From the NCBI GenBank assembly GCA_937950125.1, contig CALFEP010000082.1, positions 39,446 through 103,445 on the forward strand: a stretch of DNA of 64,000 nucleotides, read 5' to 3'. Below the pieces are notes generated by a model. That model worked only from the letters and a program-made list of their open reading frames with translations, was not told the origin of the DNA and ran no database searches. Both the position numbers and the translations under genes were made by a program. Shown here piece by piece: positions 11,839 through 52,376 of this stretch. Origin of the DNA: an uncultured Bacteroidota bacterium (GTDB lineage: Bacteria; Bacteroidota; Bacteroidia; Bacteroidales; 4484-276). How positions within the stretch are numbered: position 1 is the stretch's first letter; every line of letters begins with the position of its first letter.

Positions 11839-11847
11839 AAAAAATAG

Positions 11848-16586: not shown

Positions 16587-17978
16587 TTATTTGCTGCTTT
16601 CCTTAAAAAATGAAAGCTTATTCCTTTCAAGGTAGTCGAGCTTGTTTACAATGGCATTACTATCGGGGTAAATTTTAAAATTTGCCAATTTATCGCACCC
16701 CCCAATACAATGATTTTCAAGGTAGCAATTAACCCAGTTTCGTTTGCCTTCGCTGTACCAGTTGATTCCATTCGAAAAAAATACATTAGCCTCCTTGATA
16801 ATGAGCAGAAAAAGAACCCCGTAAAGGATGGTAATATGTAGCCATTTTCTTGTTTTGACGAGTTTACCAAAAAGCAAAATCATGAAATACATGGCCAGTA
16901 TTCCCGGAATTGCATAGGACACATACCTGGATGAAAACGCTGCCTCGAGTCCAAGACACAAGCGACCTACCGAAGTAAAGACAATAAAAAGCAAGGTAAA
17001 AGAACCAAGATAAAAAATTACAAGGGATTTAACCTCCTGATTTTTAATGATCAGAAAAGAAGAAAATGCTATTGATGCCAATAGGATTAAGAACAAACCG
17101 ACAGCGTACAGCTTAAATAATTGGAGTAAAAATGGAAAATTCAATGGAATAAAAGCGCCCCAGGCTGAACCAAACTGAAAAACAGAGAACCAAACATATT
17201 CAAGAGGATGTTCAAGAGGAAACTGAAAACAATCAGTTGCTGGAGCGTGTTGATAATGAAAGAAAAATGAACCGAAGGAGGCCATTGAAAGGATCAAAGC
17301 TCCAATGTTGAACCATTTGTTTTTGACGGTTTTGCTCCTCCACGAAAAAATGAAGAGTATAATAATTACAGGTATTGCAGCGAAAAGCGCAAAACCAGTG
17401 TAGGTAGATAAAAAAACCAGTACAACCAGGCTCATGGCTCTTAAAGCCTGATTATTAAGTGTGAGCACCCAGGCACTTAAAGTAATCAGGAACAATGGAA
17501 CAGGACCATGCGCAAGGTTGGAAGTACCAATAAATGCTTCGAATTGTAACAATGTAAAGAATGCCAGCGGAATAGCTATATCGCTCCAGTGAAGCAAGCC
17601 GAATAGTTTTCGTTTTATCAGCATAGCCAGGACACACGAAACTGCCACAAAACCAGCAGCAATAAACGCTTCAACCCTGACATTCCAATCCGTAAGCGGA
17701 TAAACAACCGCCTGAATTAACCCACCCAACCCTTGTCGGGGAGGACCATGCTGCCAGCTAAATAATTGCCAAAGCGTAGTTTGACCCTTAAATAATTGGG
17801 TTAAAAAATCCCACTGATCCCAAAAAATGACGTTTACAGCGTAACGATCAACAAACCAAATCAACCTGAAAAACAATGCAAGAAAAACAACTGTCAGTGT
17901 CAACAAATGCAATGATTGATTGGCTTCCCGTAATTGGAACATTTCAAAATTTTTCGTTTTTCTTGTCAACTTTATCAA
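16587..17978 (-). CDS. Polytopic membrane protein, paralog A of an unassigned family (possible GT-C-like enzyme)
   Basis: Shares 'Y(A/S)VN..F.D.WDF', 'Q.GP.R', 'GRL.LG.E...SSRY' and a C-terminal 'LDYL..(N/H).L' tail with 42718..44094, and more weakly with 27218..28507. The track start is a TTG; an ATG at 17942 is an alternative. Confidence 0.8.
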   Translation of the reverse strand: MIKLTRKTKNFEMFQLREANQSLHLLTLTVVFLALFFRLIWFVDRYAVNVIFWDQWDFLTQLFKGQTTLWQLFSWQHGPPRQGLGGLIQAVVYPLTDWNVRVEAFIAAGFVAVSCVLAMLIKRKLFGLLHWSDIAIPLAFFTLLQFEAFIGTSNLAHGPVPLFLITLSAWVLTLNNQALRAMSLVVLVFLSTYTGFALFAAIPVIIILFIFSWRSKTVKNKWFNIGALILSMASFGSFFFHYQHAPATDCFQFPLEHPLEYVWFSVFQFGSAWGAFIPLNFPFLLQLFKLYAVGLFLILLASIAFSSFLIIKNQEVKSLVIFYLGSFTLLFIVFTSVGRLCLGLEAAFSSRYVSYAIPGILAMYFMILLFGKLVKTRKWLHITILYGVLFLLIIKEANVFFSNGINWYSEGKRNWVNCYLENHCIGGCDKLANFKIYPDSNAIVNKLDYLERNKLSFFKESSK

Positions 17979-18012: not shown

Positions 18013-19200
18013 CTATTGGGGTCTTGTCTTTTGTTCCAACTTTAAAGTTTCATAGTTATCGTTGATCAACCTTTCCAACACCTCAAATATTACAATATCT
18101 GGTTTCTCAATCCTGATAAGGTTTGTATCAGGATTAGGCTGCCTGATAATTACCGTTTCACCAAAACTTTCTTTAACCAGTATTGCAAGATGCACAAAAT
18201 ATGAATCTGCGAATACCAATATTTTCTTTGATTCGGCGGCATTTTGAAATCTGGTCTCCCAATTGTTAAAAAATTCAGGCGGGCTGGTATCGGGAATTTT
18301 CAACTGCTTATCAATGAGTTGGGCATGTTCATTTGCCGGTAATACCAGAAATTCATAACTATTTGATTCCCGGTTTAACAGCTTTGCCAAATCCATGTTT
18401 TTAAGAATGTAAAAGCGATTTTCGATCTCATAAGGATTTAACTTTTTTACCCGCCAAAAATTAGTATTTATGGTATCCATCAACTGATTGTAAACCAACC
18501 ATGCTCCAATACTGTTCCAATGGGTATCTTCTTTGCGGTAAAGTTGCATTTGATTTCCTGATGCCAGCGATTTTCGCACATCAATTGTTTTTATCCCCTT
18601 TTCCGCTGCTTTTTTTAGGATCAACTCAAGTGTAGTTGGCTGACTTGATTTTTTCAGAGGAACAAACTCATGGTAAAAAGATGTTTTTTCCTGAATGGGC
18701 AAAAAAATAAAAAAACAACCATTTTCCTTGCACCAACCATCCAAATTACTGAGGATTTGTGCAAAATCCTCGATTTCTTCATTCTTCATTCGTTCATATC
18801 CAAGTTGTTCGGACAACCCCCGGTTGAAGTCATCACCTGCAAACAACCAACCATTGCTGCCTGTAATCACCTTATCAGGAAATGGATCGACGCAAAAAAT
18901 ATTTGTCTTAACCGCTTGAAACAATTGCAGAAACTTTGTTTTCATTGGGAAATGACTGCTAAACCATGGAGCAAAATTGTTGACAAAATAAACCGCATCC
19001 AGGTAAGTACCTTTTATTTTACCTTTCAGACCTCTGCCATTGTGAATATGAAAATGATACTCTGGAGGAAGATCAAGTACCTGTTTTGTTTTCAAGGTTT
19101 CAGGAATTGCATCCTTTAAAACCTGCAAGGTAATAGGCAGAAAAATAACCCCAGCAAACAGCATTGTAAACGCCCAGCTATGTAGGTTATTGATTTTCAT
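18013..19200 (-). CDS. AlgX/AlgJ-like (SGNH-type) polysaccharide O-acetylation protein
   Basis: N-terminal signal anchor. 'EDTHWNSIGAW' matches the D-x-H-W catalytic block of AlgJ/AlgX. The stop of the upstream MBOAT gene shares one base with its ATG (TAATG at 19200). Confidence 0.65.
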   Translation of the reverse strand: MKINNLHSWAFTMLFAGVIFLPITLQVLKDAIPETLKTKQVLDLPPEYHFHIHNGRGLKGKIKGTYLDAVYFVNNFAPWFSSHFPMKTKFLQLFQAVKTNIFCVDPFPDKVITGSNGWLFAGDDFNRGLSEQLGYERMKNEEIEDFAQILSNLDGWCKENGCFFIFLPIQEKTSFYHEFVPLKKSSQPTTLELILKKAAEKGIKTIDVRKSLASGNQMQLYRKEDTHWNSIGAWLVYNQLMDTINTNFWRVKKLNPYEIENRFYILKNMDLAKLLNRESNSYEFLVLPANEHAQLIDKQLKIPDTSPPEFFNNWETRFQNAAESKKILVFADSYFVHLAILVKESFGETVIIRQPNPDTNLIRIEKPDIVIFEVLERLINDNYETLKLEQKTRPQ

Positions 19201-20642
19201 TAAAATCTGAAATAAATGAATGGATTATATGAACCCGCTGCAATGTAGGAAACGGATACAATGAACAGTACTATAAGAAATGAATATTTTAACAAAAGAA
19301 AACCATTTTCGAGTAAGGAAGCGGGTTTCAAAAAAGTATGCAACTTTTTTGCAACAAAGGGATATGCCGGCATGGCAAAAACAATTGCAACAATTAGTAA
19401 CATAACGGTCTCGGTGTTGAAAATAAAAAAACTGAGATAATTCACCCTATCCACATTGCCATCATCAAACGAAAACATCTGAGAATAATACGCTAAAGCG
19501 TATTTCAAATCAGGTGACCTGAATAAAACAAAGGTGGTTATCCACACAAAAAGCAGGTAAAAATGTTGAACAGGCGTCCAACTTTTCTCTAACATACGCA
19601 TAAATCCTAACCTTTCGATCATGATAAAAAAACCGTGAGACAAACCCCACAGCAGGAAATTCCAGGAAGCCCCATGCCAAAGCCCGGTGGCAACAAAAAC
19701 AATGATAAGATTTAAATAAATCCTTGATGTTTTCGCAACCCTGTTTCCTCCCAAAGAAATGTAGAGGTAATCTTTGAACCAGGTTGAAAGTGTCATATGC
19801 CAACGTTTCCAAACTTCCTTTACCGATTTTGCAATGTAGGGATAGTTAAAATTTTCAGGAAAATCAAAACCGAGCATCCACCCCATACCAATGGCCATGT
19901 CCGAATAGCCTGAAAAATCGTAATACAACTGGATGACATAGGCCAACATTCCAAACCATAAGATTGCTGACGACAAATCGGAGGGTGTATGAGAAAACAC
20001 CTGGTCGGCAACCGTCGCAAACGTGTTTGCAATAATCATTTTTTTTGCCAGACCAATGATAAACCTTTCTATCCCCAATGCAAATTTATTAATACTAATA
20101 TCCCGGTTTCTTAATTGATTATGAATGTCAGCATATCGGACTATTGGCCCGGCAATTAATTGTGGAAACATGGTCACAAATGTGGCATAATCAACAAAAT
20201 TCCTGTTTGCTTTAATCTTTCCTCTATAAATATCGATGGTGTACGACAGGGTTTGAAACGTGTAAAAACTTATCCCGATTGGCAAGGCTATGTGTGGCAC
20301 ATTTTGGAACGCAGTATTTGAAATACCTGTTAAATCAAGCAATTCTCTGAAATTTTCAAATGCAAAATTGAAATATTTGAAAAAACCGAGAAGCGACAGA
20401 TTAACAACAAGCGATAATGCAAGCCCTATCTTTCGGTAACCACTTTCGATCGCCTGGGCACAATAATAGTCAGCTATTGTTGAAGTTAGAAGCACCAGTA
20501 CAATCCATTTTTCGCCCCAGCTATAAAATACCAGACTTGCCATCACCATAAAAAGGTTTTTAAGCTTTAAGGGCAAAATCAGGTAGAGTGCAAGAACAAT
20601 AGGCAGAAAAAGGAAAATAAAAATCAGGCTGCTGAATAGCAA
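19200..20642 (-). CDS. MBOAT-family membrane O-acyltransferase (AlgI/DltB-like)
   Basis: 480 aa. 'LFSSLIFIFLFLPIVLALYLILP' and the 'WHMTLSTWFKDYLYISLGGNR' His block are typical of MBOAT enzymes. The only available start is a TTG, because an in-frame TAA lies two codons upstream. Confidence 0.9.
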   Translation of the reverse strand: MLFSSLIFIFLFLPIVLALYLILPLKLKNLFMVMASLVFYSWGEKWIVLVLLTSTIADYYCAQAIESGYRKIGLALSLVVNLSLLGFFKYFNFAFENFRELLDLTGISNTAFQNVPHIALPIGISFYTFQTLSYTIDIYRGKIKANRNFVDYATFVTMFPQLIAGPIVRYADIHNQLRNRDISINKFALGIERFIIGLAKKMIIANTFATVADQVFSHTPSDLSSAILWFGMLAYVIQLYYDFSGYSDMAIGMGWMLGFDFPENFNYPYIAKSVKEVWKRWHMTLSTWFKDYLYISLGGNRVAKTSRIYLNLIIVFVATGLWHGASWNFLLWGLSHGFFIMIERLGFMRMLEKSWTPVQHFYLLFVWITTFVLFRSPDLKYALAYYSQMFSFDDGNVDRVNYLSFFIFNTETVMLLIVAIVFAMPAYPFVAKKLHTFLKPASLLENGFLLLKYSFLIVLFIVSVSYIAAGSYNPFIYFRF

Positions 20643-20703: not shown

Positions 20704-23025
20704 CTAATTTTTCAGATAACGGCTAAAAAGTGCACGTAATAGCTGCATTCCAAAGAACACCGTGAGCACAATAAAAATCAGAAAAAAATGATAAACAAAA
20801 TTGAGATAGTGTGGTCCAATAGCATTAAACTGTGTAACAGCGAGGTAGGCAATCAGGGCAACCCTTGCATTTATCATCATAAACAATCCTGACAAAATCA
20901 CCCATGGAATCCAAAATCCACCAAACCTGTGGCGAAATAACAAAAGTACCGTCATCACCATAAAGCAACACATCGAAATCAGGGTCAGCGGGAAGGTTAG
21001 CCAGGCGGTAACCCTTGCTATAATTTTCAGCATAGCATATTTCAAACGGCTCATCAGAGGCAGGTTCAAAAGCGGATCGGGAGCCAAACCTGATGTTGCA
21101 AGGGTAATATTCTGAAACCAGGCAGTCATTTCAGGGCTATTCTGGTGATACCGCGGATATGGATGATAACCCCTGAAAGTAGATGCAAAAATAAAAGCTT
21201 CTTTAAATTTTTGAATGAAGGGGTAGGTGTAACGTTGATCCCATGAGAAGGAAAGAAGCGAAATCTGGTTTCTTCGTGGCAACCTGCCATCGTCCAATGC
21301 TTGATTGATCTCGTTCGCCAATTCACGATAAAAATCCTGCGATTTAAGCAATGTCTGATGGTAACCGGCCTGATCGGCAGCCCACCTCAGTGCCCAATAA
21401 AACCATCCACCCTTGTATTCATCAGGGTAACCGGATTCAAATCCAAGAAAAATGTTGTGGCTGTCTTCCAGGGAAACCTGAAGCTCACGAAATTTCGGAC
21501 TTACTTCATAAGCCTTCATCCTCATTTTTTTGGTAACAGGAACCATGAGTTTGTTCTCGTCATCCGCAATTTTTGTCAGCACGGTGTTCACCTCAGCAAA
21601 AGCACCCGACTTTATCTCGTTGACAATAAATTTACCGTACCAGAAATAGTTGATGGTAGCGATTGATGAATTGCCTATTCCGAGAAACAGAAAAGGAAGG
21701 ATAAATAGACCCACTTTTTTCCAGGGTAACAATTCAACTGATGTTGACCCATCGGCAACGGCCAGGGTACGCCTTTTTTTTATCAACAGGAAAATTCCCC
21801 AAACCGAAAACCAGACTATTGCCGGTAGCATAATGACCCCCTCCTCTCGTGTATTCCAAAATGCAAATAATGCCAGTGAAGCCAGAATGCTCCACCTGAA
21901 AAGCGACCCCATGTTACCATTTCTGTTCACCAGCAAACCTATAAATGTTGCGAAAACCAAAACCCCAAGCGAAGAATAAATGCCTTCCCTCAGTACCCTG
22001 GTCATTGGCTCCACCGTTGTCATTGGGTTAAACAGGATAACAGCAAACAAAACAATTTTCCAAATTCGACTGCGTATTAAACCTGATAATGCATACACAA
22101 AAATTAAGGCCGTGACCACCAACAACAGAAACTGTGAAAAAGGCAAAGGAAGTCCCACACTATTGCTCAAAACAATAAACACAGAATACATGAATCCTTT
22201 GATAAGTGTAAACTGCGAATAATCGCCAAGCCATTGCCCGTTTGCCAGAAAGCAGGCCATATTGATATACAAAGCATCATCGTGCACGGCATTGGTAATA
22301 AAACACATTGGTTGAGCTGAAATCAGAAAAAACTTAAAGACGACCAGTGCAATTACCCAGGCTGCGTATTTTCTGTCGATGGCCAGAAAAAAGCTCTGCA
22401 TGTACCCGAATATCGCCCTCGTGGCCTGTCTTATTTTTGTTGTAATCGCTTGTCCAAAAATTAACAATAATAACCAGACTATAACACAAACTACCAGCAC
22501 AGCGAGCGTACGATTGCGGCTTTTTGTTTTGTCAACCAGATTGAGTGAATCCTGAATGTTTTCATTAAAATTAAGTATTGGATCATTTCCTTCCGGGATG
22601 AAATGTACATATTCAGCGCTGTCGGGCAAATTGCTGGCATGTAAACCCAACAGGCTAAAACGGGAGAGAATTTCCTGTCCCTTTATGACCACGGAATCTT
22701 CTAATCCTTTAAAACATATCTTCCTGATTGAAAAATGAACCGGATCGCTTGTCGGATCAAGCCTAAGCCTGCTTATATCAACAGCTGGCAACAAAAATGA
22801 CAGGCGCTGAAAACTACCATCTCCTGAGTATTGGTTACGAACCTTTGCAATCTCATTAAAATTTCCGTCGGAAGAATAAAAAACCTCTCCATTGCACACA
22901 GTGTCGCATTTCATTTCTACCTCGACCTTAATGGGATAATAATAAGTCTTTTTAAAAGTCGCAAGAAACAACAATGCGATTAAAACAGAGAAAAGGACAA
23001 ACTGCAATTGTTTGAATTTTTTCAT
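20704..23025 (-). CDS. Large polytopic membrane protein: N-terminal 'FNE...LRLDP' module, multi-TM core, soluble loop domain, C-terminal TM bundle (function unknown, GT-C-like?)
   Basis: Start taken at the ATG at 23025 (MKKFKQLQFVLFSVLIALLFL, a signal anchor). The track's 32-aa N-terminal extension overlaps a GC-rich hairpin. There is an acidic 'NAVHDDALY' motif after the first core helix. Confidence 0.8.
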   Translation of the reverse strand: MKKFKQLQFVLFSVLIALLFLATFKKTYYYPIKVEVEMKCDTVCNGEVFYSSDGNFNEIAKVRNQYSGDGSFQRLSFLLPAVDISRLRLDPTSDPVHFSIRKICFKGLEDSVVIKGQEILSRFSLLGLHASNLPDSAEYVHFIPEGNDPILNFNENIQDSLNLVDKTKSRNRTLAVLVVCVIVWLLLLIFGQAITTKIRQATRAIFGYMQSFFLAIDRKYAAWVIALVVFKFFLISAQPMCFITNAVHDDALYINMACFLANGQWLGDYSQFTLIKGFMYSVFIVLSNSVGLPLPFSQFLLLVVTALIFVYALSGLIRSRIWKIVLFAVILFNPMTTVEPMTRVLREGIYSSLGVLVFATFIGLLVNRNGNMGSLFRWSILASLALFAFWNTREEGVIMLPAIVWFSVWGIFLLIKKRRTLAVADGSTSVELLPWKKVGLFILPFLFLGIGNSSIATINYFWYGKFIVNEIKSGAFAEVNTVLTKIADDENKLMVPVTKKMRMKAYEVSPKFRELQVSLEDSHNIFLGFESGYPDEYKGGWFYWALRWAADQAGYHQTLLKSQDFYRELANEINQALDDGRLPRRNQISLLSFSWDQRYTYPFIQKFKEAFIFASTFRGYHPYPRYHQNSPEMTAWFQNITLATSGLAPDPLLNLPLMSRLKYAMLKIIARVTAWLTFPLTLISMCCFMVMTVLLLFRHRFGGFWIPWVILSGLFMMINARVALIAYLAVTQFNAIGPHYLNFVYHFFLIFIVLTVFFGMQLLRALFSRYLKN

Positions 23026-23124: not shown

Positions 23125-26100
23125 TTATGACAATGCCTTTTCCGGCAAGTCAAAAGTTCTGACATCATAATACTGTTCAAATTTGTCGTCAGTCATTTCA
23201 GGCCAGAGATTACGCAAATTCAGTTCTACGCTTTCGACCATCAGTTTCCTGATATTTTTCGGTATCTCAAACTCGTCATGAATGAACCTGTGCATGTGGT
23301 AATATTCGGGTACTGTTAATGCCGCCTCATTTTTGGTTGCACCAATCACAGATTTTGCGTGTATTCGATGGAAGTTGAGATGCTGATGAAAATACGCCAG
23401 AGAGCCTTGCTTCAACACTGAAAGATACAATTTCCAGTCACCGGTTGTTTTCAGGCCTGAAATCCCTGAAAAATCAAGATGATCAAACACGCTTCGCCTG
23501 AAAAGTACGGCACTCACATTGGGAATGATGTTGCGGACAGCCAGTGCATTTTCAATTTCCTGCCTGCCGTCGGTGATGTAGTCATTTTGCCATCTTTCGC
23601 GCGGGAAACCAAGTCCATCATAATGACCTGAACGTAGGTAATGTTCGTTGGAAACAACGTCATTCTCATCAACACAATGCGACGCGCAATACGCCATCAT
23701 CACAGCCAGGTTGTTAAAAGCCGGAATGAGAGAGGAGAGAAAATCATGACTGGCATAATCATCCCCTTCAGCTATCCAGACCAGGGCACCCCGAGCCATC
23801 TCAATACCTTTCTGCCATTGCCTTAATGGTGAACCACTGTTGGTTTCATTGCCAATAATACGCAAAGCAGGATGAGAAAGGTATTCTGAGGCAACTTCCA
23901 GGCTATTGTCAGTGGAGGCATCATCGAGGATAATGATCTCCACATCGCGGAATTGCTGTTTCAGGATCGAATCGAGACGGTTGCGAAGAAATGGCGCCTG
24001 ATTGAAAACAGGAACAATCACACTAACAGCCGGGGCAGTCTTCATGGCCGCATGGCAAATCTTCAGTATCTGAGGCACAGCAATATCGTCGGTATGTCGT
24101 GCAAGCATTTTATTGCGGGCTGCTTTCCCTTTTTTAATTCTGGTTTCCTTGTCAGAAATAAGCTGGCCGATAGCTTCTGCTGCTTTCATGATGTCAAGGT
24201 ATGGAACAATATACCCGGCATCTTCTTCCACAAAGGCAGGCATACCGCCAGCATCGGCAAAACAAATTACAGGAAGCTCACATTCAGCTGCTTCGAGACA
24301 TACCAGAGGGTACGGGTCTTCACGGGATGGGAGATAAAACATGTCGCCTGCCTTAAAATACTCTTTCGGATTTTCTTTTTCGCCTGTAAACAGCACGATA
24401 TCTTCCAGTTGAAGTTCACTGATGCGCTTTTCCTGCATTTGCCATTCACCCCAATCGGCCATCTCGTTGTTCCAGTGGTTTGACCCGATCCAGCAAAAAA
24501 CAAAATCTACGATGCCCATATTTTTCAAAATTCCGGCTGTTTCGATGAATAAATCGGTTCCTTTTCTCCAGTAAATGGTCCCACATCCCCAGATAATTGC
24601 TTTATCAGTTGGCAAACCATACATTTGCCGGTGATGGATTTTATCGGCAGGCTCAAAAAAACCGGGCCGGATAAATTCATCAACCTGATGCAAAATAGCC
24701 GGCTCAAGGCCATGATTTACCATCAGGTTATTGTAAACCGGCAAGGAGCAGGCAATGTAGGTGGCAGTGGTTTTTTTCATCTGATTTCTGATTTCCGGAG
24801 TGGCGTAAATCTTTATCGATTCTTCCAGTTCGTGAATGTGTGTTATGACGGGTGCACCAAACCCAACCAGCCATCGGTAAACCGTAGCCGACAATATCGT
24901 ATTTCCATAAATAAGGTCAACATTGCCTGTCAGCCCTTTAATCATGTCAAATGCCTCCTGCTCCCGGTGATGCGCCAGCATTTCATCCAACAAAATTACT
25001 TTTGCTGCACGACGGTATTCAGTCAACATTTTACCTCCGTCATTCCCCTTTTTTATAGCAACAACCGTTAGCTCGTAAGCAGTATGACGCTTCAGCCAGT
25101 TCAAAATATGAAGGAGTATCATTTCGGCGCCTGCCCTGAAAAGGTCATGGGCGATAAAAAGTATTTTTCTGGAACCTGCCCTGAAATCAATTCCACTTTC
25201 GCGCTCAGAATGAACCACTTCCCTGGGAAAAAAGACCGTTTTATGCTTGTAGCCTGCCATTTCAGCCATTTTGCCCATCATCCTTTCGATGGTGTGCGAT
25301 AAGGCGCCGTCGATATCCCCGGATTCAACTTCAAAATCTTTTTGACTGAATTTCAACGTATTAAAATAACTTAGCGCCAGCGGACGGAACCAAAACATGT
25401 TTCCCACAGGAAAATGAAAGGGTTCATCGAGTGCTGGCGGCTGTAAATCGCTGAAATAAAGCATAGCATTTTGCCGGTTTTTCTCTCTGCTTAATGCTGG
25501 CCCCCATCCTAAATGGATACCCAGATATTTAAGATAGGGAAAAGGCAAAGGCCACACAATTCCGAGTCGTTCATCAGCCTCAAAAGCTGTGATGATACGC
25601 TTGATTATTTTTCGACTTCCCAGCAGATTTTCTAACAAGTAGGTGCGCCAGCCTTCGAGTTCTTTATTGTGAGAACTTTTTTTTGAATGAACCTTGCAAA
25701 CCAGATCGTAATTGCGCAGGCAATCTGAAAACATGGATAAAAAAGGCGCAACATCCCGTCCGAGGTTGGGGACGGCACGAATGTTTATGTTGACATCCTT
25801 CATTTTCTGCCCGAAATATTCTTCGAGATACGACAAACTTTGTTCTGATGTTGTGATATAAAAGTCGCAGGGGTATGGTATCCGACGGAAATACATCATA
25901 AACTCATCAGCAAGTTCTTTGTGAAACAAGTGGCAAACTACAGCAATCTTAATGGGCTTTTCGATGGGTTCAATCATATCAGCATCCGTGATGTCAGCCT
26001 CTGCAATACACTGACTTTCATCATATTCAAAGGGTTTTGGTAAACGCCCCTCAGCTTCACCAAACTTTATATAATGAATTAGGGGATTTACTCCCATGTC

Positions 26101-40513: not shown

Positions 40514-41335
40514 TTACAACTCATCCCCAAACCCCGGTCGAAGCCGGGTGAAGGTATAGATTCCAAGAACAAAAAGCAAAATACTGATCATCCAAAAAAA
40601 CACATTCATTTCGGGAAACTCAAAAAACCAGCGGCGTTCAACCAGGGCGTAACGGTAACCCTCGGTGATGTAAAAAAACGGATTGAGCAGTGCGATAAAC
40701 CGAAGTTTGCTGTCACTTATCATCGTGTAGGGCCAAATGATGGGCGTTGCCCAAAACAAGATGGTGGTAAAAATATTAACAATGTGTGCCATGTCTTTGA
40801 TGAAAACATTGATGGAAGAAACAAACCATCCTATTCCCGACAACAAGAAAATGGTTGCAAACAGGTAATAAAAAATCTGTATCCAATAAATGGATGGGGC
40901 AATGTTGAAGCTAAACATCAGCAAAAGCAAAATACATCCCATCATCACCGCATGAACAATCATTCCCGAAAAAATTTTAATAATGGGGATAAGCATTACA
41001 GGAAATTGTGTTTTTTTTATCAGGTAGCCATATTCAGTAATGGCCATACACGAAACGATGATGGTCTGGCTGATGAAAAGCCAGGGAATAAGTCCGGCAA
41101 TGAGCCAGGCGCCATAGTGTATGCCCGATGATGTATATCCTGAGCGCAATCCATAGGTAAAGGCAAACCAAACCACCAAAACATACACTGCAGGTTGTAC
41201 AAAAGCCCATGGCAACCCAATGTAGGATGAAAGGTATCTGCTTTGAAAATCGCGCCAGATTAGGGTTTTCATCAGGAAGCGATTGGTAAACAAGGCCTTT
41301 ATTACTTCAAAAATATCTTTGTAAAATTTTTTCAT
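40514..41335 (-). CDS. wzm: ABC-2 type polysaccharide export permease (Wzm/TagG-like)
   Basis: 273 aa with six predicted TM helices. N-terminal 'LIWRDFQSRYLSSYIGLPWAFVQP' is typical of the ABC-2 glycan exporter family. Directly downstream of the ATPase gene. Confidence 0.9.
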   Translation of the reverse strand: MKKFYKDIFEVIKALFTNRFLMKTLIWRDFQSRYLSSYIGLPWAFVQPAVYVLVVWFAFTYGLRSGYTSSGIHYGAWLIAGLIPWLFISQTIIVSCMAITEYGYLIKKTQFPVMLIPIIKIFSGMIVHAVMMGCILLLLMFSFNIAPSIYWIQIFYYLFATIFLLSGIGWFVSSINVFIKDMAHIVNIFTTILFWATPIIWPYTMISDSKLRFIALLNPFFYITEGYRYALVERRWFFEFPEMNVFFWMISILLFVLGIYTFTRLRPGFGDEL

Positions 41336-41350
41336 TTACTGAATAGCGAA

Positions 41351-42667
41351 TTAATGGGTTAAAACACTGCCCGGTTCCAGGTTAAAAACCCGTGCATCGG
41401 GTATAACAATCTGAGTACCCATGTTGTAAACCGGCTTTGGAATATCAACCGATACGATTAACCCATCCTCCTGGGTGTAAATAAATTCGATATGGCCCTT
41501 GTTCAACTGTGTTATGGCCAGCGAAATGGTGTAATTTCCATTGGCAAGGTTTGGAAAAATAAATTCGGTGACAATGATGTTGGGCTCATCTTTCTTCAAG
41601 GTAATGGTCTGCCCGTAATGATGGGTATTGATTTTGAACAGTTCGGTGCTGAAGTGACCGTTCATGGTTAACTGAAATCCTGGCTGGACAACATTTTCAT
41701 GAGCCATGACCAGACACAAAACAAATACTTTCTGCCCTCCTCTGGCCTTTGTAATCGATTGTCGGGTATCAGCATCCACAATTGTTGCATGATAAATCTG
41801 CACCTGTCCATCGCCTTTCCACTGAAAATTGTCCAAATCAATCCAATTCAAACCTGCAAACAATGGTAATGATAAAATGCTGCTAAAGCCGTTTTTTGCT
41901 ACCGTTCCTGCTTTTTCCCTTGTGGTGTTGGTTTGCACCATAAAAGCCTGGTAACTGTCAGTTACTGTAACCGGGTTACCATCGGCCACAATTTCGCCTT
42001 TGTTTATCCAGATGGCACGTGTACAAAAGTCTTTAACAGCGCTCAGGCTATGGCTGCAAAACACAATGGTTTTGCCCGACTCCTTTATTTCTTTGATCTT
42101 GCGATAGCATTTCTGCTGAAAACGCATATCACCGACCGAAAGCGCCTCGTCGATGATCAGTATATCGGGATTGATGTTGATGTTCATCGAAAAGGCCAAA
42201 CGCACATACATTCCGCTCGAATAGCTTTTTACCGGCTGCCAGGCATACTCGCCGATGTCGGCAAAATCGAGTATGGCCCGCACACGTTCTTTCATATCCT
42301 TTTTACGAAAACCCTGCAAAGCTCCAATAAAAAAAATATTTTCCACACCCGTCATCTCTTCATTAAAACCACCTCCAAGTTCTAGCAGTGCTGTAACCCG
42401 GCCGTTGCATTTGTAAAATCCGGATGTGGGCGAAACTACCGAAGCCAGAATCTTCAGTAAGGTGGACTTGCCGCTGCCGTTGTGCCCTACCACACCAAGC
42501 ACCTCACCCTTTTCAACGGTAAAACTGACATTGTTGAGCGCATGATGCCAGGTGTGATATTTTTTACGCAAGGGATGAAAAAACTCCTTCATCCGGTCGC
42601 GGTGCGATTGATACAGCCGATAAGTTTTTGAGAGTGAATTAACTACTATTACTGATTCTGCCTGCAT
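41351..42667 (-). CDS. wzt: Polysaccharide ABC transporter ATP-binding protein with C-terminal carbohydrate-binding-type extension (Wzt-like)
   Basis: Walker A 'GVVGHNGSGKSTLLKIL', signature 'YSSGMYVRLAFS' and Walker B 'ILIIDEALSVGD'. An additional C-terminal domain of about 190 aa follows ('...VQIYHATIVDADTRQ...LANGNYTISLAI...'), as in Wzt proteins that recognise capped glycan termini. Confidence 0.9.
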   Translation of the reverse strand: MQAESVIVVNSLSKTYRLYQSHRDRMKEFFHPLRKKYHTWHHALNNVSFTVEKGEVLGVVGHNGSGKSTLLKILASVVSPTSGFYKCNGRVTALLELGGGFNEEMTGVENIFFIGALQGFRKKDMKERVRAILDFADIGEYAWQPVKSYSSGMYVRLAFSMNININPDILIIDEALSVGDMRFQQKCYRKIKEIKESGKTIVFCSHSLSAVKDFCTRAIWINKGEIVADGNPVTVTDSYQAFMVQTNTTREKAGTVAKNGFSSILSLPLFAGLNWIDLDNFQWKGDGQVQIYHATIVDADTRQSITKARGGQKVFVLCLVMAHENVVQPGFQLTMNGHFSTELFKINTHHYGQTITLKKDEPNIIVTEFIFPNLANGNYTISLAITQLNKGHIEFIYTQEDGLIVSVDIPKPVYNMGTQIVIPDARVFNLEPGSVLTH

Positions 42668-45829: not shown

Positions 45830-47848
45830 TTAAAGATAATATCTTAAAAGTAACACACCTATCGTAACACTAAAAAAAACAACTATGTTTAAAAGAACAA
45901 ACGCGGATAATAAGCCCGGCAAAGCATGCAATTTTCTATTGTGCAGCATCAATAAAAACAAAGGTCCGGCAGGAATAAAATATCGCCCTTGTATCCCATA
46001 AATAATTTTGCTGCCCAACGGGGCCCAGGTAGCATAAATAATGGTAAGAACAGAAAGGATAACACCGGCGGCTATGCACGAAATGATGATCTTTTGCCAT
46101 ACCCTAAATCCAAAAACGGCACTTGAGTCAAACAGCGCGGTGATGATCATTGCGAGATAAGCCCAGGATACAAATACAGGCGGAAAAGGCGTGTCATGCC
46201 AGCCCAGATTGCCAACCCATCCCACCGCGTAAGCTTTCCAAAACTGACCAAAAGTACCGACCACTACTGTTATAAATCCTGGCAAATTCTGAAACATCAG
46301 GAGTAGCTGCTTTTCAGGATGAACATCCTGCGGATAACCTTTATTAAAAGCATAAAGGCCATTGGTGACATCAACCTGTCCGAAAACATGTTGTAAATAA
46401 ATGTGATTGATGACCATTGCTGCAACAACTACCGCAAGCGACCCGGAAAACAGGACAAACCACCTGCCTTTTGAGGAAAATCCTGACAATGGAATTATCA
46501 AAATCGAGGCAATCAGCACAAAATAGGCCGTCTTTGACAAAGACAGAAAAAAGGCCATTGTGAGCATCATGGCAATGTTTGCAACAGTAATTTTCCGGTT
46601 TTCAACGAACACAAGTTTAAGCACATAAGCGATGAGAAGAAAAGACAGGCCGTTCGTAAGTCCATCGGGGCTTAATGTCGATGCCTGAAATATGGACATT
46701 GGCATAAGCGGCAACATCACAAAAACCCATTTAAAGACCGGGGTAATGCTGATGGCAAGATAAACCAGGATTATCCAGAAAAGCAGGTTTCCAAGCCGAC
46801 CTGAATAGAAAAGCAACAAGGGTGGCGCATTGAACTGAACCGGCAAAGCCATAAGCAAAGCCTGAGGAGTGTAGGGCACCGGAGTGTACTGGCAACTATT
46901 TGAATGAAATGTAAATATTGTATTTTCCGGATGTAAGGGGATATCAAAATCATTCAGAATTTTCTTAACAGAAACCTTATTCTCCGGGTTAAACGGGATT
47001 TTCTGATATCCCGACGTGAATTGAAAAAAACTTTCAGGCACATTGCCGCCAATCATATTTTCGTTAGCAAACGGCAATATTTTTAGCCTTGAAATCTGAT
47101 AAATCCTGAAAAAATGAAAAAATTCATCCGGAGATTGAAATGGAGGGGTAACAAAAACCAATATCAGCCCCCAGACGACCGCGGCATAAATGAATACCTT
47201 CTGAGGTTTTATACATGTCAGAAAAGGCAACCAGTGAGGCAGGTTTAAAAATAATGCGATAACCCGGTTCCGGATTTCAGAAGAACAGTAAGAAAGTACG
47301 ATGACCACCGCAAACATCAGAAGAATCTTTATGACCAGGAAGAATGCTTTCGTCCAATCGACCTGAAAGTCAATAAATTGCCGGATGTTTTGAGTGAATC
47401 CGATGTGCGAATCACTTCGGGTCGGTCGGACAATCAATTCGTTGTCGTCGAACAACAACCCGATATCGCTGTTCAATGTGGGCACATTGCCCGAAGGGTA
47501 TTCAACGGCAAGGCAGGTTCGATGGTTGTCATGACAAAAGGTGATGCTGTCAACCCTGACTTTAGAGGATTTTGAACCCGGGTCAATCCTCAATTGTCTG
47601 AACCAGCTTCCCGGAATTTCAAATTCAATTTTGCCCGTATTGATACTATCCTTAAAAAAATTAACGGATTCCCGCTCGTTAATTCCAAATCCGGGATTGT
47701 AAAACAACCGAAACATATCCGGCTGACCTCCTGATGAATAAAGGGTTATGGAGGTATTTTGGTAACACGAGGTCCTGAATTCAAAAAAACCATAACCTGC
47801 GATGGCTGCCATGGCCAATATAACCAAGCATTTCCTGATCAGTTTCAT
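45830..47848 (-). CDS. DUF2142-like polytopic membrane protein (GT-C-type candidate) with N-terminal 'FNE...LRIDP' module
   Basis: Start taken at the ATG at 47848 (MKLIRKCLVILAMAA), which forms an ATGA overlap with the upstream stop. 'PPFQSPDEFFHFFRIYQISR' resembles the PDExxH motif of DUF2142 membrane proteins, from memory. More than 12 TM helices. Confidence 0.75.
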   Translation of the reverse strand: MKLIRKCLVILAMAAIAGYGFFEFRTSCYQNTSITLYSSGGQPDMFRLFYNPGFGINERESVNFFKDSINTGKIEFEIPGSWFRQLRIDPGSKSSKVRVDSITFCHDNHRTCLAVEYPSGNVPTLNSDIGLLFDDNELIVRPTRSDSHIGFTQNIRQFIDFQVDWTKAFFLVIKILLMFAVVIVLSYCSSEIRNRVIALFLNLPHWLPFLTCIKPQKVFIYAAVVWGLILVFVTPPFQSPDEFFHFFRIYQISRLKILPFANENMIGGNVPESFFQFTSGYQKIPFNPENKVSVKKILNDFDIPLHPENTIFTFHSNSCQYTPVPYTPQALLMALPVQFNAPPLLLFYSGRLGNLLFWIILVYLAISITPVFKWVFVMLPLMPMSIFQASTLSPDGLTNGLSFLLIAYVLKLVFVENRKITVANIAMMLTMAFFLSLSKTAYFVLIASILIIPLSGFSSKGRWFVLFSGSLAVVVAAMVINHIYLQHVFGQVDVTNGLYAFNKGYPQDVHPEKQLLLMFQNLPGFITVVVGTFGQFWKAYAVGWVGNLGWHDTPFPPVFVSWAYLAMIITALFDSSAVFGFRVWQKIIISCIAAGVILSVLTIIYATWAPLGSKIIYGIQGRYFIPAGPLFLLMLHNRKLHALPGLLSAFVLLNIVVFFSVTIGVLLLRYYL

Positions 47849-49251
47849 CCTGCAAATTTTATTTTCCGTGCAACAAAAAAGCACATTTTCACCAGCAACC
47901 AACCATGCATGAAACGGCTGATCTGGGTGGTTCCATACCTTCGTTCACGGTAACGGATATTCACCTCTGCAATCTTCATGTTTAATTTTGAAGCGCCAAA
48001 AAGAAGATCAAAATCACCAAAAGGATCGAAATCACCAAAATACTGCCTGTTTTTTTTAATTTCTTCATAATCGCTTTTATACAAAACCTTTGTACCGCAG
48101 AGTGTGTCCTTCAACCGTTGCCCCAGCAGCCAACTGAACATCACTCCAAACATTTTATTGGCCATGTAATTCAACAGGCGCATCGACTGTTTTTCCATTG
48201 GGTAAACCAGGCGGCAACCATTGATAAAATCGCCGTGATTGGCAATCAATGCCTGGTAAAACCTGGGTAAATCCTCCGGAGGAACGGTCAGGTCGGCATC
48301 CAGGATCATCAGGACATCACCGGTTGCTGCTTCAAACCCTTCACGGACCGCATTTCCCTTGCCCCTACCCGATTGCATGAATACTTTGATGTCTTTTTCG
48401 GAATATTTGTTTTTCACCCGGACCATTTCATCAAAAGTTCCATCAGTGGATTCGCCGCAAACAAAGACAAATTCCTGGCGCTGACCAAATTGTGGGGTTC
48501 GGCGTATGGCATTTTCAATATTCCCGAATTCATTTTTAGCTGGAATTACCACAGAAACACTTTTTTCTGCAATGTCTGTTTTTACAGGCCTGGCAACAAT
48601 CAAATTCACAAGGTTAAGCGAAGAAATCAACGGCAGATTTGCAAAGAAATGATTCAGCAAATAACTGATTCCCGGAATATTAAATGGAAATAACAACTTC
48701 CGGCTGACGGTTACAATTTCATAATTTTCGAGTTTTAACATTGCGGCAATATCAGCAGTCGAAAGCCAGTTTTGAGTGGGTTGTCGCAGTTTCAGCCGTA
48801 GTTTTTCAGCCAAAAGGTTGTAGGGTTCCCACATAAAATTGTAGTTGGAAATGACCAATCGTGTGTTTGGATGACAGAATTTTCGGGCATTTTTCAGTAC
48901 CTGCTGCACATCCCACAAACTTCCCAACAGGTCGGACATAATGATGTAATCGAAGCTTTCGGTGGCTTCAACATGTATTGCATCGCCAACAACAAAATGA
49001 ATGTGCGGGTGTTTTTCTTTGGCAATGTTGATGATGGTTTCGGAAAAATCCACACCTACACCATATCCCGGCCTTACCGCATTGAGCAGATCTCCTGCTC
49101 CGCAACCCATTTCCAGCACCCGTTTTCCCGGGGGGATGATGAAACACAAATATTTTTTAAGCGAATGGTGGTAATATCGGTTTCTACGATTCCATTTTTC
49201 GCGGTAACGGGCAGTTCGTTCAAAAAAATCTTTCCAGTCGGTTGGTTTCAT
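47845..49251 (-). CDS. Methyltransferase + GT2 fusion (polyprenyl-phosphate glycosyltransferase, DPM1/GtrB-like C-terminal half)
   Basis: N-terminus 'VLEMGCGAGDLLNAV...IIMSDLLGSLWD'. C-terminus 'VSVVIPAKNEFGNIENAI...VFVCGESTDGT...ILDADLTVPPEDL'. ATG at 49251 (MKPTDWKDFF); the track start at 49257 is a TTG. Confidence 0.8.
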   Translation of the reverse strand: MKPTDWKDFFERTARYREKWNRRNRYYHHSLKKYLCFIIPPGKRVLEMGCGAGDLLNAVRPGYGVGVDFSETIINIAKEKHPHIHFVVGDAIHVEATESFDYIIMSDLLGSLWDVQQVLKNARKFCHPNTRLVISNYNFMWEPYNLLAEKLRLKLRQPTQNWLSTADIAAMLKLENYEIVTVSRKLLFPFNIPGISYLLNHFFANLPLISSLNLVNLIVARPVKTDIAEKSVSVVIPAKNEFGNIENAIRRTPQFGQRQEFVFVCGESTDGTFDEMVRVKNKYSEKDIKVFMQSGRGKGNAVREGFEAATGDVLMILDADLTVPPEDLPRFYQALIANHGDFINGCRLVYPMEKQSMRLLNYMANKMFGVMFSWLLGQRLKDTLCGTKVLYKSDYEEIKKNRQYFGDFDPFGDFDLLFGASKLNMKIAEVNIRYRERRYGTTQISRFMHGWLLVKMCFFVARKIKFAG

Positions 49252-49289
49252 GCACAAGATTTTATGCTTGACATTAAAATATTATAGAT

Positions 49290-50670
49290 CAATCAGAAAA
49301 AATAAAAATCAGACTTTGGGAATATTGGGTAATGCAACAAATGCAAATGAGTAGAACGAGGTAAGCGAAATAATAACGATCATCAGTTTGACGAATATGG
49401 ATTTAACAGATTCGTGATTTTTGGTGAACCAAAAACCGAAAACCCCCAATATTGACAATAAATACCTCCCTTGTGGCTGAAAATCGCTGACCCAGGAGAA
49501 ATATGATGACCTGTAAATGATGAAAAATAAAAGGCTAAAAAAATCAAAGGAAGTAGCTTGATTGTGGGAAAACTATGAAGCAGTCTGAATACAACGATGA
49601 ATCCAATTAAGATTGAAATTAATAAAACATGATCTTGTAATTCAATGGATGGCTTTTGATTGACTTATAGCCAAAAACACCAAAAAATGACATAGCGGTT
49701 TTTGTGTGCCAACTCCATTTCTCCGAATACAATTCGGAATACTTAACCCCCTTCTCCTTCAGGAAAAGCCCAAAACAAGATGTTTCAAGAGTTTTTTCAG
49801 CATGTTTGAAACGGGCGTGCGCATATTTTTCCTTGAATTCGGAAATCAATAAACGCCTGTTAAATCCATGCAATTTCACATCATACAAATACCTCGGCAT
49901 CAAAAATAAAAGCGTCAACCCAATTAATGCCAGGCATTTTAGGGAAATCCTTGTCGATTCCCTTTATTATCCACTAAATACAAAAACACGATTATTGCAA
50001 AGAAGACAAGTATCAGGCAAAAATTTTTCTTTGAAAAAATCCGAAGTGCCAACAGGATTGCCATGATTACAGCGCCTTATAATATGGCCGTGGGTTTTGG
50101 GTGAAACAAGAAATTTGTTAAACGAAATGTTATCATTAACAAGCTGGTAAACAACAAGTATCGATAAAAATAAAGCGAACGCATCGGTGTTAACATACGA
50201 AAACAACTACCAGATTTGCGGAGAATTTTGCTAAACCAGTAGCAGGGGCTTTACTTTTCGGCTTCCTTTTAAAAACAGAACCATCAAACTTAAAAACAGC
50301 ACTTTGTTGAATAATCTTATGGATAGCAGCGAATCGTTGACAATGTACCCAACCAGAACCGAGAATTTTCAATTAAAAAATAACAGGGATCAAAATCCGT
50401 CAACCGTGAATGCCCGTAAGCTGAAAAACCTCCCCTGATGTCCGGATCACTTACCACCGGTGTAAGCCAATGATTTTGATACTATGTAACCGCTTCCGCC
50501 TGGACATGTTCATCGGGATGTGCATTGAACCTGCTTGTGACAGCCATCGTAATTATGAACAAAAAGATGATTAAAAAAATGGTGCTTAGTAGCACATTCA
50601 ATCCGGGATGAAGATACCGGCAAACCCGGTTTTTAATGGCAATTAATATCCTGCAGTTTTTGTATTTCAT
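49290..50670 (-). pseudogene. Frameshifted remnant of a second DUF2142-like/GT-C membrane protein gene
   Basis: The N-terminal piece (50482..50670) reads 'LLSTIFLIIFLFIITMAVTSRFNAHPDEHVQAEAV', a TM helix followed by a PDExH motif. Further hydrophobic segments continue in at least four different frames. For example, after the stop at 49619 the frame shifts to 'ISILIGFIVVFRLLHSFPTIKLLPLIFLAFYFSSF...' and then to 'LMIVIISLTSFYSFAFVALPNIPKV'. Confidence 0.5.
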
Positions 50671-52376
50671 AGTTGCCCAATTTCAGATGTTGGAAGCCTG
50701 CCTTCTTTCTTTCCATATTTTATGTAATGAACCAGTGGATTCATCCCAACTTCTTTTACATCAGGATTTTTGGCCAGATAAAATACGGAATCGAATTTTG
50801 TTGACGGATTTCTACTTTCAAAGCCTCCGTAAAGCAGAAAATGCTTTTCCGCATCCATTCCCGATTCTTTAACATCAGGATTGTTTTGCAGGTAAAAATC
50901 CACCTCAAAAAGGCTGCTTTCACCTATCAGGCGGATGTTTCTTTGCAGTGTGATTTTCTTGTTAACCCATCGGTAAAATTTAGCGGGGTGAAGCAGTGAC
51001 AAGCTTTTGGCAAAACGATAAACAGAACTGCGCTTTATAGAAACAATCTCATTTTTGAGCGCTTCAATTTTACTATTTAGTTGGCTTATTTCAATTTGAT
51101 GATGCAATGTTTTCCCAACGAAATCTTCATTGAGCCTTGTCTCCTCAAAATTCATTTGAGCAGACTCATTTTTGAGGTTCCTGGTTTTTTCCTGCCTCTG
51201 TTTAATGATTATTTCGAGTGCATCAAAAACCTTTATTCCAGTCGCCAAATATTCTGCATCTATTCCAACATGGTCAAATTCAACAGTTCCTTCGGTTTCG
51301 ATCAAAATCTGTGGGTCGGAATTTGAAAAATAATAAACCGAATTTTCGACTACACATGCATTTGAAGTGAGACGAAAATTGATAATAACCTCATTTTCGT
51401 TATCGAAAAACCTGATGGACTTTAGCTTTACAACAGCAAAATCGTTGAGCGGATCAAATCTCAGCCTCGAATAACATTGCCCAGTTGGCAATTTAAAAGG
51501 TAATGGATTATTAGAAATTTCGATACACGCCGAATTATCTTCGTTGAAGTCCCTACTTCCGGTTTGATAAAAAAGCTGTGCGAAATATTTTTTTTGGATA
51601 ACGAGGCTTTCGAGAACCTGGGTTGGTAGCAATGAAAGGGTTACCGGATATTTTTGTTTCAGGTAGTAAATGAGGTGTTTAAGCTGGTCGGATTTGAAAT
51701 TCAGCGATTTATTCAAATGGTGAACGCGGTAAAACGACAGTGGTTCCCCCGGAATAAAAGCAACCGTTCCGCCCATTTTGCCCACTCTCAGCCAGAGTTC
51801 ATAATCTTCCCATCCATAAGGTGGCATCATGTTATCATACATTCCAGCTTTTATGAGTTCGAATCTGCGGAACATGGCCATTGCATCAATGTACGGAGCT
51901 TCGAGTAGTTTCAGGTAATCGAAAGGTTGATTTGATCGCAGGCCGCAATTTTCGCCAGTTTCATGTAAAAAATTCTGAATTGAGGCATAACAAGCCATGG
52001 CTTCATGATTTTGCCTCAAGGTGGCAACATGAATCTTCAGGCAATCCTTCCGGATGTAATTATCAGAATCGAGGAAAAATAAAAATTCACCGCGGGCATT
52101 AGCAATTCCACGGTTCCGGCTTGATATCAGCCCAAGGTTGGTTTCATTTTTTATCAGCCTGACAGGGAAAGGGCTTCCTTTCATTATTTCCTCAATTACG
52201 TTAACACTTTCATCAGTGCTGGCATCATCCACAATGATTACTTCCATTTTATCGGATTCAAAATCCGAATTAATCACGCTCTGCAGGCACTGCCCGAGGT
52301 AATGGGCATAATTGTAATTGGGGATGATTACGGAAACAAGCACGCTGTCAGAAGAATTATTGGAGGTGGCAATCAT
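50667..52376 (-). CDS. GT2 glycosyltransferase + 'FNE...LRFDP' module + coiled coil + 2x 'NPDV/NPL.HY' repeats
   Basis: 'VSVIIPNYNYAHYLGQCLQSVINSDFESDKMEVIIVDDASTDES...FLDSDN'. Module at aa 265-385 ('QLFYQTGSRDFNEDNS...YSRLRFDP'). Heptad-rich aa 385-445. C-terminus 'FEVDFYLQNNPDVKESGMDAEKHFLLYGGFESRNP' and 'FDSVFYLAKNPDVKEVGMNPLVHYIKYGKKEGRLP'. Confidence 0.88.
   Translation of the reverse strand: MIATSNNSSDSVLVSVIIPNYNYAHYLGQCLQSVINSDFESDKMEVIIVDDASTDESVNVIEEIMKGSPFPVRLIKNETNLGLISSRNRGIANARGEFLFFLDSDNYIRKDCLKIHVATLRQNHEAMACYASIQNFLHETGENCGLRSNQPFDYLKLLEAPYIDAMAMFRRFELIKAGMYDNMMPPYGWEDYELWLRVGKMGGTVAFIPGEPLSFYRVHHLNKSLNFKSDQLKHLIYYLKQKYPVTLSLLPTQVLESLVIQKKYFAQLFYQTGSRDFNEDNSACIEISNNPLPFKLPTGQCYSRLRFDPLNDFAVVKLKSIRFFDNENEVIINFRLTSNACVVENSVYYFSNSDPQILIETEGTVEFDHVGIDAEYLATGIKVFDALEIIIKQRQEKTRNLKNESAQMNFEETRLNEDFVGKTLHHQIEISQLNSKIEALKNEIVSIKRSSVYRFAKSLSLLHPAKFYRWVNKKITLQRNIRLIGESSLFEVDFYLQNNPDVKESGMDAEKHFLLYGGFESRNPSTKFDSVFYLAKNPDVKEVGMNPLVHYIKYGKKEGRLPTSEIGQL
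50670..50918 (-). repeat. Two C-terminal 'NPDV/NPL.HY...EGR.P' protein repeats
   Basis: See the sequences quoted for 50667..52376. Same repeat family as 26032..26625 and 63772..64000. Confidence 0.8.

Follow-up and report, generated by a model that had tools for sequence, protein, structure and literature searches.

We describe here a protein module of about 135 amino acids (aa) that occurs three times in a stretch of 64,000 nucleotides from an uncultured Bacteroidota bacterium (contig CALFEP010000082.1, positions 39,446 to 103,445; this whole stretch is hereafter called the window). Two copies are carried by polytopic membrane proteins, A and B, and the third by a soluble glycosyltransferase of family GT2, protein C (Table 1). 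What is new is the module family itself, the cassette in which the module is enclosed between two transmembrane (TM) helices (TM-module-TM), and the split of the family into a presumably extracytoplasmic subfamily (t1) and a cytoplasmic one (t2) within a single pathway. We propose, with a probability of about 0.5, that the module would be a non-catalytic domain resembling a carbohydrate-binding module (CBM), serving to tether enzymes that build or modify glycans to their substrate.

The resemblance between the three copies is faint in pairwise comparisons. They are 16-22% identical to one another, and BLASTP between them gives E values of only 1.6e-4 (A-B), 0.012 (A-C) and 0.024 (B-C), the module pair being nevertheless the top match each time. 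Such values are what a similarity due to chance or composition, with no shared module behind it, would have in its favour, but we consider this explanation to be practically without merit. Indeed, a profile made of 53 database modules, with zero window sequences among them, was run on the 695 six-frame open reading frames (ORFs) of the window and matched exactly the three proteins, at E values from 1e-24 to 6e-33 (Table 1), the next ORF following at E=0.57. No fourth intact copy was found by this profile in these ORFs, including those of the large multidomain glycosyltransferases. Furthermore, the profile of the membrane subtype alone detects copy C at 1.2e-14, that of the soluble subtype alone detects copy B at 3.3e-9 and copy A at 5.4e-8, and alignment of the t1 and t2 subtype alignments with hhalign yields a probability of 99.4% (E 3e-21). 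This cross-detection, together with the hhalign result, means that the similarity of the three segments is due to homology and not to chance. Recovery of 524 database proteins with a profile of only three sequences, and the confident structural models obtained for both A and C (see below), also argue against a fortuitous resemblance. As judged from these profiles, copies A, B and C are homologous members of one domain family, and chance is excluded.

A first-pass annotation of the window, made from the letters alone, had already proposed that the same module appears three times. The profiles bear this out, being significant where pairwise BLASTP is weak, and all three segments are present at the places it gave, on the minus strand, with the peptides that it quoted. 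Its estimate of the module size, about 110 aa, was too small: the length is of ~130-137 aa across the three copies, and the ends it had set at 22606 for A and 47459 for B fall 25-34 aa short of the true ones, 22531 and 47357. In copy C the structured core corresponds to aa 263-380.

Table 1. Module copies, the proteins that carry them and other features of the window (positions count from the first letter of the window; TM helices from the Kyte-Doolittle scan).
Feature	Position	Strand	Description
Module copy A	22531..22947	-	aa 27-165 of protein A; subtype t1; E 5.7e-33
Module copy B	47357..47776	-	aa 25-164 of protein B; subtype t1; E 1e-24
Module copy C	51222..51638	-	aa 247-385 of protein C; subtype t2; E 1.1e-27
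Protein A	20704..23025	-	773 aa, polytopic, ~10 TM, unannotated family
Protein A, TM1	22954..23010	-	signal anchor, aa 6-24; opens the cassette
Protein A, TM2	22453..22509	-	aa 173-191; closes the cassette 8 aa past the module
Protein B	45830..47848	-	672 aa, DUF2142 polytopic protein, ~12 TM
Protein B, TM1	47786..47842	-	aa 3-21; opens the cassette
Protein B, TM2	47291..47347	-	aa 168-186; closes the cassette
Protein C	50667..52376	-	569 aa, soluble, GT2 at aa 15-142
Wzm and Wzt	40514..42667	-	ABC-2 permease and ABC ATPase with C-terminal Wzt_C (Pfam); Wzt at 41351-42667
Methyltransferase-GT2 fusion	47845..49257	-	directly upstream of protein B (Pfam)
Remnant of a fourth polytopic protein	49315..50550	-	frameshifted, 5'-truncated; tblastn E 7e-34 to P0040 and P0072
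ORFs without Pfam match	16587-17978, 27218-28615, 28497-29474, 29478-30578, 42718-44094, 58717-59367	-	

An exhaustive search with a profile of the three sequences against 1.84 billion cluster representatives retrieved 524 clusters at E<=1e-3, of which 53 at <=1e-10, and since such a profile is weak, 524 is a lower bound on the size of the family. The family consensus reads QLFYDxGxGFNExxS ... FxLPxxxIxxLR(I/F)DP ... IxxI ... (G/S)NDP, with R62 and D64 invariant and E32, S35, P65 and D122 conserved in at least 90% of the modules. Tandem arrangements are frequent, 54 of 150 matches having two copies, six having three and two having four. The hosts, almost all of them metagenome-assembled genomes (MAGs), belong to Lentisphaerae, Patescibacteria, Bacteroidota, Desulfobacterota, Verrucomicrobiota, Chlorobi, Acidobacteriota, Campylobacterota, Spirochaetes and Methylococcaceae. 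Pfam-A has no family that matches the module, either in the full proteins or in 56 modules searched in isolation (E<=1), and there is no match to it in NCBIfam; the profile has zero matches among PDB sequences at E<=10, and tblastn with one t1 and one t2 module gave none in 72,556 plasmids. Word-indexed homologue searches returned one and three proteins, for which the sole source name was 'hypothetical protein'. The family has probably gone unannotated so far because it is found mostly in uncultured lineages. Two proteins that could have indicated an adhesin-type context were dropped: P0020 (4912 aa), which was not confirmed by a re-scan and has unrelated Pfam content, and P0069, a protein of the type IX secretion system (T9SS), the Pfam content of which is also unrelated.

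Of the 116 modules with good coverage, the t1 profile gives the higher score for 72 and the t2 profile for 44, and both groups are found in markedly different proteins. A t1 module comes after exactly one TM in 44 of the 72 cases, mostly in proteins with at least five TMs, while 36 of the 44 t2 modules are in proteins with zero TM (TM calls throughout come from a Kyte-Doolittle window scan, not from a trained predictor). The idea that the membrane-protein copies face the periplasm and the GT2 copy the cytoplasm therefore holds and can be generalized to the family. The setting of t1 is the TM-module-TM cassette, placed before polytopic cores such as DUF2142, DUF6056, PMT_2, YfhO and GtrII, and that of t2 is soluble GT2, GT4, GT25, RgpF, sulfotransferase and methyltransferase proteins. 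In a set of 154 proteins, one or more modules between two TMs precede a polytopic core in 57 (A and B included), and 41 are soluble (C included); a further 13 consist of an anchor plus modules only, 13 are stand-alone TM-module-TM cassettes, and six have a polytopic core with C-terminal modules, the two of these that were scanned with Pfam (P0003 and P0012) being DUF6056 proteins. The TM that closes the cassette starts within about 10 aa of the module end.

Cores of the GT-C type begin with their N terminus inside and have an acidic first loop outside. Addition of two helices keeps the topology of the core and leaves the acidic loop outside (HDD in A, SPDE in B), so that the cassette would place the t1 module outside, and we infer that this subfamily is extracytoplasmic. 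A pair of cysteines forming a hairpin (C-x8-9-C[WL]) supports this location, as it is restricted to t1: it was observed in nine of the 72 t1 modules and in copy B (FCHDNHRTCL), and in 0 of the 44 t2 modules. Positive-inside charge was uninformative, with 2.2, 1.8, 2.2 and 2.6 K+R per 15 aa at the four flanks in 70 cassette proteins. One of the stand-alone cassettes, P0001 (L001 10001-10693), is convergent with a gene for a polytopic protein of the YfhO family (10775-13159), with multi-GT2 genes also nearby; the pair looks like a 'split' version of a cassette plus its core.

In protein A, TM3 is followed by an HDD motif that is invariant (aa 248-250), and the protein also contains an R-E-E motif and a soluble loop of ~200 aa. 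It gives no match in Pfam or NCBIfam, and a search of the PDB with its core returns nothing credible, yet its chassis constitutes a conserved family of its own (P0010, P0027, P0042, P0077 and P0146), with the same architecture and invariant HDD and R-E-E motifs. In P0010, the neighbouring genes encode heterodisulfide-reductase-like Fe-S/FAD oxidoreductases and a sigma/anti-sigma pair. With ~10 TMs and HDD after TM3, but with no match to a known GT-C enzyme in Pfam, NCBIfam or the PDB, protein A is a putative GT-C-like enzyme. The core of protein B (aa 225-626) is a DUF2142 domain (PF09913, E 1.3e-59, 202.5 bits for a cut-off of 30.1), with a SPDEFF motif at aa 239, after TM3. Comparison of the A core with the DUF2142 core of B by hhalign yields a probability of 3.4%, that is, no profile similarity. 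The first-pass annotation had called the three catalytic chassis unrelated, which is true of their sequences (a GT2, a DUF2142 and a core with no Pfam or PDB match) but not necessarily of their folds, since the cores of A and B may both be GT-C folds, with their acidic residues (HDD or PDE) in the first outer loop.

Protein C, with zero TM, consists of its GT2 domain (PF00535, E 2.1e-34, 119.3 bits), the module, a helical heptad-like linker (~396-470) and two 'FDxxxYLxxNPDV...EGRxP' repeats (486-569). The t2 module is often accompanied by such a linker and repeats (P0002, P0006, P0011, P0013, P0016 and P0041, among others). The repeat, of ~36 aa ('FDxxxYLxxNPDVxxxGxNPLxHYxxxGxxEGRxP'), has no Pfam match; besides the two copies at the C terminus of protein C (50670-50921, minus strand), four are found at the N terminus of a 1265-aa RgpF-GT4-GT2 protein of the window (26023-26622, minus strand).

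All partners recognized by Pfam in 72 module proteins are glycan enzymes. The counts are eight for GT2, five for DUF6056, five for DUF2142 and three for DUF7657, and the other partners are ALGX, PMT_2, GT25, Sulfotransfer_3, WbsX, RgpF, Sulfatase, GtrII, GT99, YfhO, methyltransferases, GT4 and Capsule_synth. The genomic context is of the same kind. The window is a long polysaccharide cluster on one strand, with multidomain GT2, GT4 and RgpF proteins, sulfotransferases, methyltransferases, a pyruvyl transferase and a TupA-like ATP-grasp protein. Its Wzm and Wzt mark a glycan pathway that depends on an ATP-binding cassette (ABC) transporter. A scan with an alignment of six module sequences provided 26 loci besides the window: two or three module ORFs occur in a stretch of 12 kb in seven of them, Wzm/Wzt are no more than 6 kb away in seven, and in eight a GT2 gene (GtrB-like) lies beside the t1 protein. 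The locus of a culturable bacterium, Opitutaceae bacterium EW11 (L021), encodes two module proteins side by side. In the window, the methyltransferase-GT2 fusion encoded next to B would be a GtrB-like polyprenyl-phosphate sugar synthase that supplies the donor for B. When B is compared with three-component systems of extracytoplasmic glycosylation (GtrA/GtrB/GtrC type), it has an adjacent syntenic GT2, and DUF2142 as a putative GT-C, but we identified no gene for a small flippase in the window.

Two loci from uncultured Bacteroidetes MAGs (L007 554-8611 and L005 1-4843) are syntenic with the window around B, through a block formed by a sulfotransferase, Wzm, Wzt, the methyltransferase-GT2 fusion (75% identity), the DUF2142 protein with its module (38%) and a methyltransferase (65%). 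Within this block, identity drops from 75% for the putative donor synthase to 43% for the B core and 33% for the B module. The same trend is found between orthologues of the other two proteins, the module being more divergent than the rest in A (42% versus 53%) and in C (50% versus 58%). Faster divergence of the module than of core and synthase is in keeping with a contact between this part and a variable glycan. Each copy is nearer to its orthologue in another genome (A 42%, B 33%, C 50%) than to the other copies in the window; together with their low mutual identity, this gives no sign of a specificity shared by A, B and C. The suggestions of the first-pass annotation that the module may direct different enzymes to the same polymer, or sense its length, are thus speculative in the first case and more so in the second.

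As a CBM-like tether, the module would bind the glycan acceptor, either lipid-linked or exported, at the surface of the membrane and thereby retain the enzyme to which it is attached, which would raise the local concentration of substrate and aid the attached catalytic domain in selecting its acceptor. The t1 cassette, preceding the first core helix of a GT-C-type enzyme, would put the module on the outer face, beside the active site that uses the lipid donor; t2 would follow a soluble glycosyltransferase using nucleotide sugars, or another modifying enzyme of the cytoplasm. The full polymer would initially be found on the cytoplasmic face and be acted upon there by C; after export, A and B would act on it on the outer face, using lipid-linked donors, of which the product made by the neighbouring GT2 would be one. 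The occurrence of the polymer on both faces of the membrane in an ABC-transporter-dependent pathway would explain the presence of one family on both sides. We count in favour of this role the homology of the copies, the confident all-beta models, the glycan-enzyme partners, the match between compartment and subtype, the genomic context, the tandem copies and the stand-alone cassettes. Weak profile hints are counted too, as all of them fall within the group of galactose-binding-domain-like families: F5_F8_type_C (E 0.1, 13 bits for a cut-off of 28), Glyco_hydro_2_N2 (0.085) and PITH (0.05) are sub-threshold matches, each on one of the 56 modules, and Mann_GBD_bact gives a partial match of 29.3 bits on P0002, in which no stretch passes alone.

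AlphaFold2 (AF2), run with family alignments, predicts an all-beta fold for module A (pLDDT 96, pTM 0.89, 11 strands) and for module C (pLDDT 92). Both models were compared by strand register on the sequence alignment: 42 positions are strand in both, of 68 and 71, so that the conserved core coincides, and the prediction that the module is one beta-sandwich-like fold agrees with the models. They differ at their ends, t1 having an extra N-terminal strand and t2 instead two extra C-terminal strands, which may reflect strand replacement. The best Foldseek neighbours of model A are PLAT/LH2, C2 and CBM60 domains (TM-score 0.4-0.53). For PLAT/LH2 or C2 the best E value is 4.9e-3, with TM-scores mostly of 0.37-0.47 and one of 0.51, short of E<=1e-3 together with at least 0.5; the CBM60 match has E about 1e-2 and a TM-score of about 0.5. 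Model C has no PLAT or C2 matches by Foldseek, only noise, and a search of a viral library also returned only noise.

These neighbours raise the alternative that the module binds the membrane surface or a lipid carrier, as PLAT/LH2 or C2 domains do, and holds enzymes at the bilayer interface; its ligand would be phospholipid head groups or undecaprenyl (pyro)phosphate, possibly through a metal on conserved acidic residues. The top neighbours of model A are indeed the PLAT domains of lipoxygenases and lipases and C2 domains (probability 0.99, TM-score 0.4-0.5), the polar motif (N31, E32, R62, D64 and D122) is invariant whatever enzyme is attached, and soluble t2 enzymes must somehow reach acceptors linked to undecaprenyl pyrophosphate (Und-PP). 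Moreover, the t1 module must lie on the membrane, because both its ends are tied to TM helices within ~10 aa. We nevertheless regard this alternative as unlikely. Polytopic enzymes have no need of an additional membrane anchor, every Foldseek E value is above 1e-3, PLAT and C2 matches are missing from model C and from Pfam searches of the 56 modules, and tandems of two to four copies and a divergence faster than that of the catalytic core fit variable ligands better. A related and quite improbable variant is that the module, rather than being a glycan-specific CBM, is a sensor of ancient origin for the one part that never varies among lipid-linked glycan intermediates, the undecaprenyl-(pyro)phosphate head group at the surface of the bilayer. 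Binding would rely on the N-E / R-D / D cluster, which is conserved throughout, and might involve a metal; the module would be used on both membrane faces to hand lipid-linked substrates to enzymes that are otherwise unrelated.

It is also conceivable, though in our opinion doubtful, that the module is a structural element, such as a docking or oligomerization domain, a rigid spacer or a ruler, that binds no glycan and serves to assemble the enzymes of the pathway into complexes or to set distances between catalytic sites. The presence of several module proteins in one cluster can be read in this way, as can the association of the t2 module with the heptad-like linker and NPDV repeats, a combination reminiscent of the rulers that WbdD and WbbB form with their coiled coils. 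So can the two to four tandem copies found between two glycosyltransferase domains, for example in P0002 (GT2, four modules, repeats, GT2), and the GT99 terminator domain of one fusion partner. But both termini of t1 return to the membrane, which leaves no role as a spacer there, stand-alone anchored modules exist, and two copies separated by the membrane are unable to dock together.

Several observations weigh against the CBM-like role that we prefer. Foldseek finds nothing in the PDB at E<=1e-3 for either A or C, and PLAT and C2 domains, which bind lipids or membranes, are as prominent as CBM60 among the neighbours of model A. No CBM family of Pfam matches any of the 56 modules, which, with the PDB and Foldseek searches, places the module outside the CBM families that these searches cover. 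The most conserved positions (FY-D-G-GFNE, LR-DP and DP) are constant across enzymes that must act on very different glycans. Constancy of this kind typifies structural cores, metal sites and the binding of an invariant ligand more than it does sites that determine specificity. The protein A orthologue that is closest (P0010, L028 6543-8879, 53% identity) is not encoded in a glycan cluster. Nor is the topology settled by counts of positive-inside charge alone. Finally, the CBM of GT136, the closest functional precedent discussed below, is dispensable when the enzyme is over-expressed (PMC11127046).

This precedent is ORF12, the GT-C enzyme of family GT136 from the three-component Ribf system of Citrobacter youngae O1, in which a beta-rich C-terminal CBM binds the unmodified O-polysaccharide (PMC11127046). 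Like the t1 module, this CBM is an extracytoplasmic beta-rich accessory domain (~150 aa in ORF12) on a GT-C enzyme, and the logic of the pathway inferred for protein B is the same, namely the decoration of a polysaccharide exported by an ABC transporter, with a donor from a neighbouring polyprenyl-phosphate sugar synthase. Unlike the module, which is in an N-terminal TM-module-TM cassette, the ORF12 domain is C-terminal, after TM11; both were compared by description only, and no cytoplasmic relatives are described for the ORF12 CBM. As summarized in the same work, the mycobacterial GT-C arabinosyltransferases EmbC and AftD have periplasmic lectin-like beta-sandwich CBMs that bind the acceptor polysaccharide (PMC11127046). 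These are likewise beta-sandwiches on the outside of GT-C enzymes, but their position in the protein differs, the module has no profile match to any PDB chain (their structures included), and they are absent from the top 50 Foldseek matches.

On the cytoplasmic side, the same work describes Wzt-C as binding the polymer terminus (PMC11127046). Wzt_C (PF14524), one of which is encoded in the window, is similar to the module in being a beta-sandwich of an ABC-transporter-dependent pathway and, as a cytoplasmic polymer binder, to the role proposed for t2. However, it is found on the transporter and not on enzymes, hhalign between it and the module gives a probability of 0.15%, and PF14524 matches no module; by these profile comparisons, the module is not a Wzt_C homologue. 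PLAT/LH2, C2 and CBM60/CBM36 domains are beta-sandwiches of similar size and the nearest folds of model A, but PLAT/LH2 and C2 bind lipid or membrane and not glycans, and have no sequence signal in the module. For the galactose-binding-domain-like families, the likeness consists of sub-threshold profile matches (E 0.05-0.1) on single modules.

The choice of the polymer that a glycosyltransferase decorates, and the efficiency with which it does so, depend in part on accessory binding modules, and to our knowledge few have been characterized on biosynthetic enzymes, these being EmbC, AftD, the GT136 enzyme ORF12 and Wzt-C. Defining the family would annotate hundreds of 'hypothetical' regions, would give access to the way in which acceptors are recognized by GT-C families whose function is unknown (DUF2142, DUF6056, DUF7657 and the family of protein A), and would make the TM-module-TM cassette available as a portable part for glycoengineering. 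One fold on both membrane faces within one pathway is unusual, and the three copies of this cluster make it directly testable.

The window also has the remnant of a fourth polytopic protein, in the apparent gap of 1.4 kb between the methyltransferase-GT2 gene and protein C. It covers aa ~426-842 in two frames, and has lost the N-terminal part in which its intact relatives, P0040 and P0072, bear two modules; it may represent a pseudogene, or else result from a mistake in the assembly.

Other genes of the cluster are of interest in their own right. Immediately downstream of protein A, the genes for an MBOAT (AlgI-like) protein and an AlgX/AlgJ-like SGNH protein (18013-20642, minus strand) suggest that the same polymer undergoes O-acetylation outside the cytoplasm; in two database proteins, the module itself is fused to an ALGX domain. 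A protein of 1177 aa (30665-34198, minus strand) combines a FemAB/GNAT-like acyl/aminoacyl transferase domain (aa ~136-285) with two GT2 domains, which suggests decoration of the glycan with amino acids or acyl groups. A restriction-modification fusion of 1054 aa resembling type IIG enzymes (HSDR_N, Eco57I/MmeI methylase and a TaqI_C specificity domain; 37293-40457, minus strand) is located centrally in the cluster, with glycosyltransferase genes on one side and Wzm/Wzt on the other. Six ORFs of the cluster, of 216-465 aa, have no Pfam match at E<=1e-3 (Table 1), and as two of them, 27218-28615 and 28497-29474, overlap by 119 nt, one of their start calls is probably wrong. DNA of the window was also found in metagenome runs from bioreactor sludge.

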